The notes beneath the pieces were generated by a model that did not search any database, had not been told where the DNA came from, and saw only the letters and a list, made by a program, of their open reading frames with translations. A stretch of DNA of 64,000 bases from Nitrosopumilus sp. (lineage in GTDB: Archaea; Thermoproteota; Nitrososphaeria; Nitrososphaerales; Nitrosopumilaceae): the NCBI GenBank assembly GCA_965205675.1, contig OZ242186.1, positions 512,001 through 576,000 on the forward strand, written 5' to 3'. The translations under genes were made by a program, and so were the position numbers. Positions 9,488-61,903 of the stretch are shown piece by piece. Every line of letters begins with the position of its first letter. Within the stretch, counting starts at the first letter, position 1.

Positions 9488-10439
9488 AGTATCTGATTAC
9501 AAAACAGATGTTCACAATGATTGGTGTCCTGGTTGCGGTGATTTTGGAATTGTAAATGCTATTCAGATGGCTCTAGCTGAGATGGGAATAAAGCGAGATA
9601 AAGCCGCAATGTTTTCAGGCATTGGTTGTTCTGGCAAAACCTCTCATTATATCAACACTTATGGAGTTCACACTTTGCATGGCAGAGTCTTGACTTTTGC
9701 ACAAGGTGCAAAAATTGCAAATCCTGAGTTAACTGTAGTTGCTGTAGGTGGTGATGGTGATGGTTTGGGAATTGGAGCTGGTCATTTTGTTGCTGCTGGA
9801 AGAAGAAATGTGGATATGACTTACATTATTTTTGATAATGGTGTTTACGGTTTAACAAAAGGACAAGCATCTCCCACTTTGAAATTAGGAGAGAAAACAA
9901 AATCATTGCCTTCTCCTAACACAAATTCTAATGTTAACCCTATTGGGTTAGCTGTTGCAAGTGGATTCACATTTGTAGCTCGTGGGTATTCATATGATGT
10001 TAGACATCTTAAGGATTTGATTGTTCAAGCAGTAAATCACAAAGGTCTTTCATTTCTTGATGTGTTACAACCATGTCCAACTTACAATGATCTTAACACT
10101 AGGGATTGGTATGCTGGATCAGATTTAGTCGATGAGGCACAAAAACGACATGCTAGAATATACAAACTAGAAGACCATGGCTATGAACCAACAGTACATT
10201 ATGATTCTGAAGTTGAAGTAAATGAAAAACTATCTCAAGCTTTGATTAAATCCCTCGAGTGGGGAAATAAAATACCTACAGGCGTATTTTATAAAAATGA
10301 CCTTATCTCTCCTTATACTCAAAGAATAAAAGATAAAATTCCAAACTATTTAGAGAACTCGCCTGCCAAACAAAACATTTCAAAGAACGGACGTCCTAAT
10401 ACTGATATCTCAAAAATCTTAGATTCTTTAGAAGTATAG
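9477..10439 (+). CDS. korB: 2-oxoacid:ferredoxin oxidoreductase beta subunit
   Basis: [22 protein letters not shown]...[17 protein letters not shown]-binding motif. Confidence 0.93.
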
Positions 10440-28826: not shown

Positions 28827-29136
28827 AGATTTTGTTTCTTCGCCAATTATTTAATTTAAAGGTGTACTGGATTTCGTATTTATTTTTCTGTAAAGCCCAC
28901 AATTCAAACTACCCAACAAAAAGCGTATGACCATCAGTCTGGAACACCCAAAGGGTATTACGACTGAGGAAGGAACATCAAATTATACAAAGTCAACATA
29001 ATTCAAAAACTACAAACACATCAAAACTCCATTCTAGATTTTTAGAACATTATTAAAAATAAAAAAGGCTAGTTCAAAGACGAACTAACTTGACTGTCAA
29101 ACATTGTTACCAGACATAAATCATAATCAAAAGTCG

Positions 29137-29279
29137 TGGACCTGTTGGGAGTTGAACCCAAATCTCCTAGGTTTCAATTAGGTACATGACCCTCATGCTA
29201 CAAGTAATTGGGTATGCTGAGATAAAGTCAGTTAGGGCCTAGGTTTCAATTAGGTACATGACCCTCATGCTACAGGCCC
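29137..29279 (-). tRNA. Atypical tRNA-like gene (Ala acceptor identity, GAA anticodon) interrupted by a 72-nt insertion/duplication
   Basis: Removing one repeat+spacer gives GGGCCTG TA GCAT-GAGGGTC-ATGT A CCTAA-TTGAAAC-CTAGG AGAT TTGGG-TTCAACT-CCCAA CAGGTCC A (71 nt). Confidence 0.7.
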
Positions 29280-29345
29280 ACAAAGATTTAATAAATAATG
29301 AATGCTAATAACATTAGGTTTCAATTAGGTTAGGCCAGCGTGCTA
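29166..29345 (-). repeat. CRISPR-like mini-array: 37-bp perfect repeats 29166-29202 and 29238-29274, 35-bp spacer, degenerate third repeat ~29315-29345
   Basis: Repeat (-) TGTAGCATGAGGGTCATGTACCTAATTGAAACCTAGG; 16-nt core repeated exactly at 29315-29330; no cas genes in the window. Confidence 0.85.
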
Positions 29346-29401
29346 ATCTCTTTTTTCTATTTTGCAATGCTTACCATCCCCCATACAAAAATATCACAGA
29401 T

Positions 29402-30412
29402 TGCTGTGTTTCCCAACATGACTAGTTGATCCAATTAATTTCATCACCCAAGCTTTAGATCAGAATATTCTGTATTATTCCATGAACAGAAACTGGAAAA
29501 ATTACAACAAAACACTAGTTAGACGTGGAGAAATCATGTTGTCCTTTGACGCAATGGAATCATGGAGTATGGAACTAAAAGAGATGAATCACAAAAAGGA
29601 AGGTCATCGATTTGTCTATCCTGAATCCTTCATGGAGGCGCTAGGATACTGTCATCTCTATTTGCATCTTCCATTCAGACAAACAGAAGGTCTGATAAAA
29701 TCACACCTCCAATCCAAAACAAAGACTCCCACATATTCTGCCATTTGGAAACGTGTCAACAAACTTGACATCAAGATGAATCCAAAACTAGGAAAAGACA
29801 TTGTCATTGCAATAGACTCAACTGGAATCAAGGTTGCAGACAGAGGTGAGTGGATGAGACAGAAATGGCAGAAGAGAAGAGGATTTCTTAAAATTCATGT
29901 GGCAGTAGATGTGAAATCTAAACAGATCACAGGGATTGATATTACAGATGACAAGTCACATGATTCAAAACATTTCATATCGCTAGTTGAGCAATTAAAA
30001 CAGTTTGGCAATGTCACTAAAACTTTGGCTGATGGTGCATATGATACAAAGGACAATTTTTCATATCTGTATTATGATAATGATATTCTACCTGCAATTA
30101 AAACAAGAAAAAACTCATCAGTTGTAACTGATTGTTATCCTCGGAGAAAGTCTGTTTTGGCACAATTGTATAACTTGGATCTATGGAAGCTCAGCGTAAG
30201 CTATGGGGATAGATGGATTGTAGAGGGAGTATTCTCTGTATTCAAAAGAATATTTGGAGAGCATGTGACATCGCACAAGAGAGAAAACATGATTCATGAA
30301 TTGAAAATGAAAGTTTGTCTGTACAATAAAATGATTGCAATGCAATAGAATCAGAAATGATTTCAAAGCATCAAAGAGTGTTGATGGTTATTTGGGGTTG
30401 GGAAACAAAGCA
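29402..30412 (+). mobile_element. IS5-family insertion sequence (IS903-like), ~1011 bp
   Basis: 16-bp TIRs TGCTGTGTTTCCCAAC / GTTGGGAAACAAAGCA (15/16 match); no clear target duplication. Confidence 0.88.
29482..30348 (+). CDS. IS5-family DDE transposase
   Basis: NWKNYNKTLVRRG, AIDSTG, KIHVAVD, ADGAYD, YGDRWIVEGVFSVFKR. Confidence 0.92.
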   Translation: MNRNWKNYNKTLVRRGEIMLSFDAMESWSMELKEMNHKKEGHRFVYPESFMEALGYCHLYLHLPFRQTEGLIKSHLQSKTKTPTYSAIWKRVNKLDIKMNPKLGKDIVIAIDSTGIKVADRGEWMRQKWQKRRGFLKIHVAVDVKSKQITGIDITDDKSHDSKHFISLVEQLKQFGNVTKTLADGAYDTKDNFSYLYYDNDILPAIKTRKNSSVVTDCYPRRKSVLAQLYNLDLWKLSVSYGDRWIVEGVFSVFKRIFGEHVTSHKRENMIHELKMKVCLYNKMIAMQ

Positions 30413-43893: not shown

Positions 43894-44433
43894 ATGAGCA
43901 AGAATTTTTGGCATGATATAGAATCAGGCAATGATGTCCCAGAAATCATCAATGCTATTGTAGAGATTCCAAAAGGATCTATGAACAAATACGAATATGA
44001 TAAAAAACACAACATGATAAAATTAGACAGAGTTTTATTTTCACCATTTCATTATCCTGGAGATTACGGTCTCATACCACAAACACTATCCGATGATGGG
44101 GATCCTCTTGATGCTCTAGTTTTAGTGACAAATCCAACATATCCTGGAATCTTAATAGAGGCAAGACCAATAGGACTACTTCAAATGAAAGATGATGGAA
44201 AACTAGATGACAAAATTATTTGTGTGGCAACAAATGATCCTAGATATCTACACACTGCAGATATTTCAGACATCGAAGATCATTATCGTTCAGAGATTGC
44301 CCATTTTTTCCAAGTGTATAAGGATTTGGAAGGGAAAAAAGTAGAAATTTTGGGATGGAAGTCATCTAAAGAAGCAAAAGTCGTAATCATAGAATCAATA
44401 AAAAGATACAAAGATACTTTGAAAAAATATTAG
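43894..44433 (+). CDS. ppa: Inorganic pyrophosphatase (family I)
   Basis: EIPKGS, KYEYD, LDRVL, YPGDYG, DGDPLD, HFFQVYKDLE. Confidence 0.96.
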   Translation: MSKNFWHDIESGNDVPEIINAIVEIPKGSMNKYEYDKKHNMIKLDRVLFSPFHYPGDYGLIPQTLSDDGDPLDALVLVTNPTYPGILIEARPIGLLQMKDDGKLDDKIICVATNDPRYLHTADISDIEDHYRSEIAHFFQVYKDLEGKKVEILGWKSSKEAKVVIIESIKRYKDTLKKY

Positions 44434-61649: not shown

Positions 61650-61903
61650 TAATATAGGAAAAAAAATACACTATTAAAATATTGAGATCATACTCAAATT
61701 GGGCTAATTGTACGACTCATCTAGTGAACCTCAATTGAGATACTCAAATGGTTCTTTAGATTATTTGTAATACAAATGAAAAGCAAAATTATTTTCTAGA
61801 GTATGTCAGGTAGGCACTTTCCCATCTACTGAGAATTGAATAATTCTTTGGGGTTGAAAATGAATTATAAACTGTGAACTATCCAAGTCAAATGTAAAGA
61901 ATC

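Follow-up and report, generated by a model that had tools for sequence, protein, structure and literature searches.

A 72-nt insertion with target duplication in a tRNA-like gene of Nitrosopumilus sp., a probable scar of off-target CRISPR spacer integration

The element studied here lies in a 64,000-nucleotide (nt) stretch of DNA from Nitrosopumilus sp. (contig OZ242186.1), which we call the window and which corresponds to genome positions 512001 to 576000 of a single 2.01-Mb contig with 33.7% G+C. Within the window, a transfer RNA (tRNA)-like gene with anticodon GAA on the minus strand (positions 29136 to 29279) is broken by a 72-nt insertion. Two exact 37-nt direct repeats, at 29166 to 29202 and 29238 to 29274 and offset by 72 nt, are separated by an insert at 29203 to 29237 that is single copy in the genome, has 40% G+C and measures an apparent 35 nt, as an initial annotation of this DNA had noted when it described two identical repeats of 37 base pairs (bp), a unique 35-bp spacer and a period of 72. 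If the duplication is counted from its GT dinucleotide, it measures 36 nt, base 29274 is common to flank and insert, and the insert is possibly 36 nt long. The promoter-proximal copy (29238 to 29274) covers tRNA positions of about 6 to 43, and the distal copy (29166 to 29202) is fused to the 3′ part of the gene (29136 to 29165), which comprises the variable region, T arm, 3′ acceptor strand and discriminator in the Rfam tRNA alignment and is 92% identical to a paralog at genome positions 419467 to 419614. The duplicated stretch contains the D arm, which accounts for the palindrome reported earlier, and the anticodon arm, with the motif ATTGAAAC inside the anticodon loop.

ARAGORN run with default settings reported a tRNA-Phe(GAA) at 29136 to 29207, and the Rfam tRNA model scored 34.2 bits over 29140 to 29205 (gathering score, 29). 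When introns were permitted, ARAGORN instead reported a tRNA at 29136 to 29279 carrying a "72-nt intron." The acceptor stem pairs GGGCCUG (29279 to 29273) with CAGGUCC, which requires a 5′ end at 29279, and with GGGCCUG located upstream of the distal copy, an intact gene results only when exactly 72 nt are removed. The promoter and 5′ acceptor strand are thus separated by 72 nt from the 3′ half of the gene. The housekeeping tRNA-Phe is encoded by a separate gene at genome positions 1563605 to 1563679. We conclude that the tRNA-like gene is split. No sign of function was seen for the unit, whose most likely effect is to inactivate a single, dispensable gene of a tRNA-like family.

The initial annotation had allowed for an assembly artefact and had called for a comparison with related loci. 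A 102-nt contig from sequencing run X1, which may be the source sample, spans 29166 to 29267 with 0 differences, and with that limit on its independence the unit is not an assembly artefact. Empty sites were found in related sequences. Two of the four runs compared, X2 and X3, which come from two studies with different organism labels, each gave one 388-nt contig, aligned over 339 nt with 8 differences, in which 28951 to 29165 was joined to 29238 to 29361, a junction read as "skips 72, both 37"; a further run, X4, gave no contig across the site, either filled or empty. A paralog at genome positions 419548 to 419619 is an intact 72-nt tRNA-like gene with anticodon AAG and conserved flanks, and its alignment (419467 to 419701) crosses the site with a 37-nt overlap and lacks exactly 72 nt. 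Moreover, the full-length family members in the congeners G007 and G015 are insert free. We conclude, from the paralog, the two relatives and the two runs of related strains, that the 72 nt arose by insertion with duplication of the target.

The source of the insert was sought in several sequence collections. Elsewhere in its own 2.01-Mb genome the insert had no match (best, 14 nt with an expectation value of 0.14), and neither 50,697 phage records nor the DNA of the relatives compared here gave a match. Viral contigs and metagenome contigs contained no exact match, although exact scans would miss a diverged protospacer. The insert is therefore unique in its own genome, as the initial annotation had suggested, and the match to phages, viral contigs or metagenome contigs for which it had asked was not obtained.

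A complete CRISPR-Cas system is present about 157 kb from the tRNA-like unit, outside the window, and contains the cas1 and cas6 genes that the initial annotation had proposed to look for. The single Cas1 of the genome is encoded at 699655 to 700497 and matched the Cas1b model with 437 bits against a cut-off of 304. On one strand, the surrounding type I-B locus carries cas6, a putative cas8 (an open reading frame, or ORF, that has the size of a large subunit and matches no family), cas7, cas5 and cas3; an IS630 transposase gene and cas4-cas1-cas2 come next. The IS630-family gene lies between cas2 and cas3 at 701265 to 702263 and might change cas expression. In the resident array (698254 to 699003), 12 repeats of 30 nt enclose 11 spacers that are 34 to 37 nt long; in the sense of the CRISPR RNA, its repeat starts with GTTTGAAT and ends with ATTGAAAT, and we take it to be similar to the repeat of Haloarcula hispanica. 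The array spacers had chance-level matches only among the phage records, and the ORFs left of the array had no Pfam match. An orphan mini-array at 9807 to 9905, far from the cas locus and adjoining an insertion-sequence copy, consists of two degenerate resident 30-nt repeats and a 37-nt spacer. The target in the tRNA-like gene is not measurably similar to the resident repeat, with 10 of 30 identities, which is the background level.

To place the unit in its genomic context, a census was made of isolated direct-repeat pairs at offsets of 40 to 130 nt across the whole genome. Thirty isolated pairs were found, 16 of them at offsets of 64 to 73, and 13 were accepted as units; isolated pairs of at least 26 nt at other offsets were mostly at multiples of three, like coding duplications. 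Rejected pairs include 9807, which is the orphan mini-array of degenerate true repeats, and 396854, which is a 48+24 repeat; a third pair that was set aside (offset 64) was shorter than 26 nt and is probably the A-rich low-complexity pair 422831. The candidates at 423555, 1343783, 1796704, 396854, 479570 and 422831 were rejected as tandem, coding or low-complexity repeats, and the candidate at 1480044 was neither accepted nor rejected. Given the single-copy insert and the clustering of offsets at 64 to 73, the unit is not a chance match.

The accepted units fall into two classes by duplication size, and their inserts are 32 to 37 nt long, compared with 34 to 37 nt for the array spacers. Class 1 (n = 4; genome positions 199961, 439378, 1478538 and 98271) has a 30-bp duplication and inserts of 34 to 37 nt. 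Class 2 (n = 9) comprises the tRNA-like unit, at genome position 541166, and the units at 732792, 1247936, 1474824, 1479353, 1505435, 1599699, 1704607 and 1774762, with an apparent duplication of 36 to 39 bp, inserts of 32 to 36 nt and offsets of 70 to 73; the true class-2 duplication is probably about 36 bp. Class-1 targets look like the resident repeat, with which they agree at 15, 18, 19 and 18 of 30 positions (background, 10.1 ± 2.4); a level of 15/30 is reached by 3.4% of 30-mers starting with GT, and three of the four targets end with TTGNAAT. Class-2 targets agree with the resident repeat at 6 to 12 of 30 positions. The class-2 duplications start with GT in 8/9 units (chance, 0.26 each; P of about 1e-4 in a test chosen post hoc). 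Mismatches between repeat copies occur in 1/4 units of class 1 and in 2/9 units of class 2.

The census also provided empty sites and one protospacer. Empty sites inside the genome were found for 5 of the 13 units, and no paralogous copy carries any unit. For the unit at 1474824, 24 IS66-family copies lack exactly its 73 nt, with 100% identical flanks in the first six checked, and excision of repeat plus insert restores a 447-amino-acid transposase frame. Paralogous copies without the unit number 9 for 1478538, 6 for 1479353, 15 for 1774762 and 1 for the tRNA-like unit. An empty site for 1599699, the only unit so searched, was sought in 60 congeners, in which only the flanking insertion sequence matched. 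A tandem repeat at genome positions 1337 to 1345 kb contains five copies of a sequence that the insert of the unit at 1774762 reproduces exactly over 34 nt. Because 2 of these 34 matched nt are hidden in the apparent repeat, the duplication of this unit is 36 bp starting with GT and its insert is 34 nt. Units in housekeeping surroundings lie at gene ends or in intergenic DNA, such as at the 3′ end of a UbiA-family gene or beside hemA, and insertion sequences harbor others. A 5-kb stretch of repeat-rich DNA (1474824 to 1479462), which also encodes a ParB-like protein, holds three units representing both classes and may be an insertion hot spot or simply tolerant DNA. The genome shows a recent expansion of insertion sequences: the IS66-family element is present in 24 copies, and the flanks of six of them share 100% identity over 438 nt.

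The class-2 duplication size has a counterpart in other members of the genus. Cas1 homologs were found in 43 of the 101 genomes of the genus searched, and three congeners (G091, G014 and G087) contain a second type I set made up of cas7, cas5, cas3, an unassigned ORF, cas1, cas2 and cas4. The arrays beside this second set have 37-nt repeats that start with GT and end with ATTGAAAC, which forms their last 8 nt, and spacers mostly of 35 to 36 nt, within a main range of 34 to 37 nt, at a period of about 72. The CRISPR-type 37+35 geometry and the ATTGAAAC ending emphasized in the initial annotation therefore match the 37-nt CRISPR repeat of congeners, and the 36- to 37-bp duplication of the tRNA-like unit corresponds to the length of that repeat and not to that of the resident 30-nt repeat. 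Similarity stops there: the target agrees with the congeners' repeat at 9 to 10 of 37 positions, again background, with only the GT start shared, and ATTGAAAC lies 5 to 6 nt out of register with the end of the 37-nt duplication. The proposal of a repeat-like tRNA as target thus finds no support in either CRISPR repeat. In the assembly, there was no second cas1, cas7 or cas5, no copy of the congeners' 37-nt repeat with up to 10 mismatches allowed, and no ATTGAAAC pair at CRISPR spacing other than that of the tRNA-like locus. In G014, a 37-nt-repeat array with 76 repeats adjoins a type I-B array with about 95 repeats, each with separate adaptation genes (G014:C1:1748075-1763706). As a synteny test for loss of the second system, this composite locus aligned only at cas genes and the array (65 to 70% identity), and the composition of spacer ends gave no separation of the two systems.

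As a control, the census was repeated on the whole 1.70-Mb contig of G087, in which the only Cas1 is of the second type. Six orphan units were found at non-repeat sites, with duplication plus insert lengths of 37+36, 36+35, 37+34, 36+35, 35+34 and 35+34 (positions 61661, 381767, 879346, 1174536, 1536512 and 1589657), in addition to an orphan mini-array of true repeats at 43914; units with 30-bp duplications were absent from the contig. Of the six inserts, two reproduce sequence of the G087 chromosome exactly (983480 and 1222702), and the duplications of these two self-derived units measure 36 bp and at most 35 bp. A 72-nt periodic match in the congener G052 was rejected as a G+C-rich coding repeat.

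We propose, from the anatomy of the units and their association with CRISPR-Cas systems, that Cas1-Cas2 left the tRNA-like unit as a scar when it integrated a spacer off target (ectopically), and we put the probability of this reading at roughly 85%. Cas1-Cas2 would attack the tRNA-like gene at staggered positions separated by about 36 to 37 bp and would join a fragment of spacer size, about 35 to 36 nt, at these sites, and gap repair would duplicate the stretch between them to give target copy, spacer and target copy. Cas1-Cas2 fits because fragments of about 35 nt were copied and pasted with a 30- or 36-bp duplication and because some of the sites are CRISPR-repeat-like. Slippage, transposases, tyrosine recombinases and casposases were rejected as the maker, as they do not fit copy-and-paste of about 35 nt with such duplications. 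Consistent with ectopic acquisition and target duplication, which the initial annotation had listed among its readings, the genome contains a cas locus, 12 sister units, a self-derived insert and empty sites.

Two integrases could have made the class-2 units, and we lean, by a modest degree, toward the adaptation module of the 37-nt-repeat system, whether lost, unassembled or mobile, over the resident type I-B system. The second-type module is favored because off-target spacing is fixed at 30 to 31 bp in another 30-nt-repeat system, because aberrant sizes in H. hispanica are 29 to 33 bp and because of the G087 census. The competing proposal, which we regard as possible but doubtful, is that the resident type I-B Cas1-Cas2 made all nine 36- to 39-bp units, the second attack falling by default at about 36 bp when a mid-repeat anchor is missing. 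This proposal departs from our reading in the enzyme alone and requires no second CRISPR system. Its Cas1 is the only one in the assembly, both classes co-occur, including in the three units within 5 kb at 1474 to 1480 kb, and the classes look equally young by the fraction of units with mismatches (1/4 and 2/9). Moreover, the H. hispanica type I-B system measures the duplication with a ruler on a promiscuous mid-repeat motif, so that the size can vary, according to passages of Wang et al. 2016 (PMC4872114). The same passages, however, report sizes of 29 to 33 bp only and a loss of adaptation when at least 4 nt were inserted, and passages of Grainy et al. 2019 (PMC6698737) give the off-target spacing of the Pyrococcus furiosus enzyme as 30 to 31 bp regardless of sequence. 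The class-2 size also coincides with the repeat length of the other CRISPR type of the genus, and G087, with only the 37-nt type, shows only this class, at 35 to 37 bp. A broader proposition, to which we give even odds, is that off-target spacer integration is frequent in the genus (13 plus 6 fixed events), that duplication size identifies the integrase, and that the tRNA-like unit and its eight sisters are fossils of a recently lost 37-nt-repeat system.

Several observations weigh against off-target integration by Cas1-Cas2 or against the choice of integrase. The link to Cas1-Cas2 is drawn from anatomy and association, and the source of the insert was found neither in its own genome nor in phage records, viral or metagenome contigs or relatives. 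The tRNA-like target resembles either CRISPR repeat at background level only, and no empty site came to light for 8 of the 13 units. The test of the GT start was picked after the data had been seen, and only 2 of the 6 G087 units start with GT. With neither a 37-nt repeat nor a second cas1 in the assembly, the favored integrase must be postulated as lost or unassembled, and its loss must be recent because 7 of the 9 class-2 units keep perfect repeats. Finally, the congener G052, which has a type I-B Cas1, lacked units throughout its first 400 kb, and the phenomenon is thus not general.

Explanations without spacer integration were also weighed. The 72 nt could be an archaeal tRNA intron at a bulge-helix-bulge, with the gene still functional: ARAGORN reports an intron of exactly that length, one bulge-helix-bulge-like motif (AU / GUAC / CUA bulge / AU) would remove exactly 72 nt, and the precursor RNA folds somewhat better than shuffled sequences (z, −2.3). 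That motif, however, is an automatic by-product of a GTAC palindrome in the direct repeat, with flanking helices of two A-U pairs, and an intron would explain neither the 37-nt copy of exon sequence, nor the absence of the insert from the paralog, from the members of two relatives and from two related strains, nor the 12 equivalent units at non-tRNA sites; we consider it scarcely credible. Alternatively, the repeats could be attachment (att) sites of a tyrosine-recombinase element that has since been almost wholly deleted. The tRNA-like family does adjoin mobile or defense DNA (a TraG-like ORF at 419 kb and a type III restriction-modification pair at 1273 to 1278 kb), and thaumarchaeal integrated elements often target tRNA genes according to passages of Krupovic et al. 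2019 (PMC6563490). Those passages also give a median att length of 17 bp and place all but one of the tRNA integrations 3′ distally, whereas here only 35 nt separate the repeats and no integrase ORF lies nearby. Moreover, unrelated sites, including one inside an IS66-family transposase gene, show the same pattern of a 30- or 36-bp duplication around some 35 nt of insert, and one sister insert was copied from the chromosome, which together make a recombination scar highly unlikely.

A last set of alternatives holds that the unit is a working mini-array or regulatory RNA under selection, be it a new CRISPR seed, a CreTA-like module or a tRNA-processed guide. The unit lies in sense orientation behind the upstream region of the gene and is thus probably transcribed, and the duplicated stretch contains ATTGAAAC. 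Against such a role, the motif is out of register with the duplication end by the 5 to 6 nt noted above, a single insert is present whose target was not found in genome, phage, viral or metagenome sequences, the unit is absent from related strains, the cas locus is about 157 kb away, and the sister units sit in insertion sequences, gene ends and intergenic DNA, like neutral scars. We therefore regard a selected function as very improbable. Nor is there an indication of the incipient multi-spacer array envisaged by the initial annotation, as there is one insert and a target unrelated to either repeat; the canonical array is likewise a poor description of two copies of a non-CRISPR sequence at that distance from the cas locus. 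CreTA modules consist of degenerate repeats beside a cas operon with a spacer that partly matches a toxin-gene promoter, and the tRNA-like unit has no such repeat similarity and is not near cas genes. Casposons carry a casposase gene and terminal inverted repeats and make a target duplication of about 14 to 15 bp. A casposon, also raised by the initial annotation, does not agree with a genome in which the one Cas1-family match is in the cas operon, with the absence of an ORF in the 35 nt or with a duplication of 36 to 37 bp. We conclude that an off-target integration scar accounts better for the unit than an intron, an att scar, a functional mini-array or a casposon.

The initial annotation had further described a degenerate third copy of the repeat upstream of the unit. 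A third exact copy of a 16-nt core is indeed present at 29315 to 29330, 75 nt further upstream, but it is a feature of the gene family that also occurs in members without the insertion and is not a CRISPR-type repeat. The core ends a conserved upstream element (29315 to 29361, minus strand) that is outside the insertion and is also found in the paralogs at 419 kb, 359 kb, 1278 kb and 1273 kb and in G007, G015 and G014. All full-length members (those of the window, 419 kb, G007 and G015) carry, at the end of this element and about 75 nt upstream, a second version of their anticodon arm, and the arm and its copy agree at 16/16 positions in the window and at 419 kb and at 15/16 in G007 and G015. 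The loops vary by locus (TTGAAAC in the window, GTAAGAA at 419 kb, CTAAGAA/GTAAGAA in G007 and CCGAGAA in G015), and the copies covary with the gene. Deletion forms at 1273 kb and in G014 have the element fused straight to the 3′ half. Judged by these alignments, the third copy predates the insertion and is unrelated to it. The idea that the upstream copy and promoter region represent an older spacer insertion was rejected, as the 5′ acceptor strand, which pairs with the 3′ end, would then have to come from the "spacer."

The family loci lie at 29136 to 29361 of the window and at genome positions 419548 to 419701, 358963 to 359062, 1278785 to 1278858 and 1273738 to 1273813. The anticodon loops of family members are unusual, and a long variable arm is missing even from those with a Leu anticodon. 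A type III restriction-modification pair (a methylase of 645 amino acids and a Res-type helicase-endonuclease of 860 amino acids) is flanked by two direct copies of the upstream element at 1273738 to 1278858, an arrangement that resembles a cassette inserted at a tRNA-like site. Three more ARAGORN calls of tRNA-Phe(GAA), 83 to 89 nt long (genome positions 1261574 to 1261656, 1794331 to 1794418 and 1858414 to 1858502), have a long variable arm and 8-bp acceptor-like ends and are further tRNA-like genes. Downstream of the gene in the window, an 89-nt block (28891 to 28979) is 82% conserved at genome positions 419363 to 419449 and may be a small ORF or structured RNA. On the other side, a multicopy insertion sequence of 1,012 bp (29401 to 30412, plus strand) neighbors the unit without being part of it; its transposase (29482 to 30348) matched Pfam DDE_Tnp_1 with 88.2 bits, and the genome holds two further full-length copies (99.5 to 99.7% identity) and partial copies.

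The literature, as searched through listings and passages, contained no report of such units in ammonia-oxidising archaea. In those passages, off-target integration has so far been described in vitro and in Escherichia coli overproducing Cas1-Cas2, with natural cases called circumstantial; the present genome supplies natural events that are datable and for which there are empty-site controls and identified protospacers. The units show that adaptation would carry a mutational cost, with a transposase gene broken, a prenyltransferase gene extended and the tRNA-like gene split by one unit each, and they form a natural data set on where Cas1-Cas2 lands outside the array. The two discrete duplication sizes pose the question of whether there were two integrases or one with two geometries. 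If two integrases were at work, the scars would reveal CRISPR systems lost by the lineage, and if the scars are fossils of such a system, they would reconstruct past CRISPR content, gauge the genomic cost of adaptation and catch arrays at birth. We note a caution for annotation, in that ARAGORN takes the tRNA-like unit for an intron-bearing tRNA-Phe.

One of the closest known parallels is in E. coli, where work by Nivala, Shipman and Church from 2018, as related in passages that refer to it, reportedly found noncanonical integration by the type I-E system and "neo-CRISPR" units. Like the present one, those units, as described there, consist of one insert of spacer size outside CRISPR, flanked by a duplication about as long as the repeat, and are attributed to an adaptation integrase. 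They differ in that Cas1-Cas2 was overproduced in E. coli, whereas the present units are natural and fixed in a wild archaeal genome, number 13 there and 6 in a congener, and have two duplication sizes, one of which is unlike the resident repeat. One text referring to that work calls the natural evidence for off-target integration "circumstantial" in two other species. Archaeal tRNA introns are alike in being insertions in a tRNA-like gene, and ARAGORN treats the unit as one, but the insertion carries a 37-nt exon copy and is absent from 3/3 other full-length members and two related-strain contigs. Thaumarchaeal integrated elements, on which CRISPR-Cas is known according to passages of Krupovic et al. 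2019 (PMC6563490), are bordered by direct repeats that include part of a tRNA gene. By analogy with their median att length of 17 bp, the 16-nt upstream copy may be a short attachment core; at the unit itself, in contrast, no element lies between the repeats, and the repeat exceeds that median and covers the 5′ and anticodon part of the gene.

Two archaeal adaptation systems are also comparable. In passages of Wang et al. 2016 (PMC4872114), the H. hispanica system, of the same type I-B subtype as the resident one, sets the end of the duplication with a mid-repeat ruler, such that the duplication runs from a fixed site to a measured distance and its size can change; the aberrant sizes of 29 to 33 bp arose inside the array, whereas the sizes here are 36 to 37 bp at unrelated sites. 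In passages of Grainy et al. 2019 (PMC6698737), P. furiosus Cas1-Cas2 integrated in vitro at non-CRISPR sites with a spacing of 30 to 31 bp, equal to the repeat length. Those experiments were done on plasmids and gave 30 to 31 bp only, whereas the tRNA-like unit has 36 to 37 bp. The likeness to P. furiosus lies in paired attacks on opposite strands at repeat-length spacing and in repeat-like borders including G1 and T2, and it is the class-1 units that are alike.

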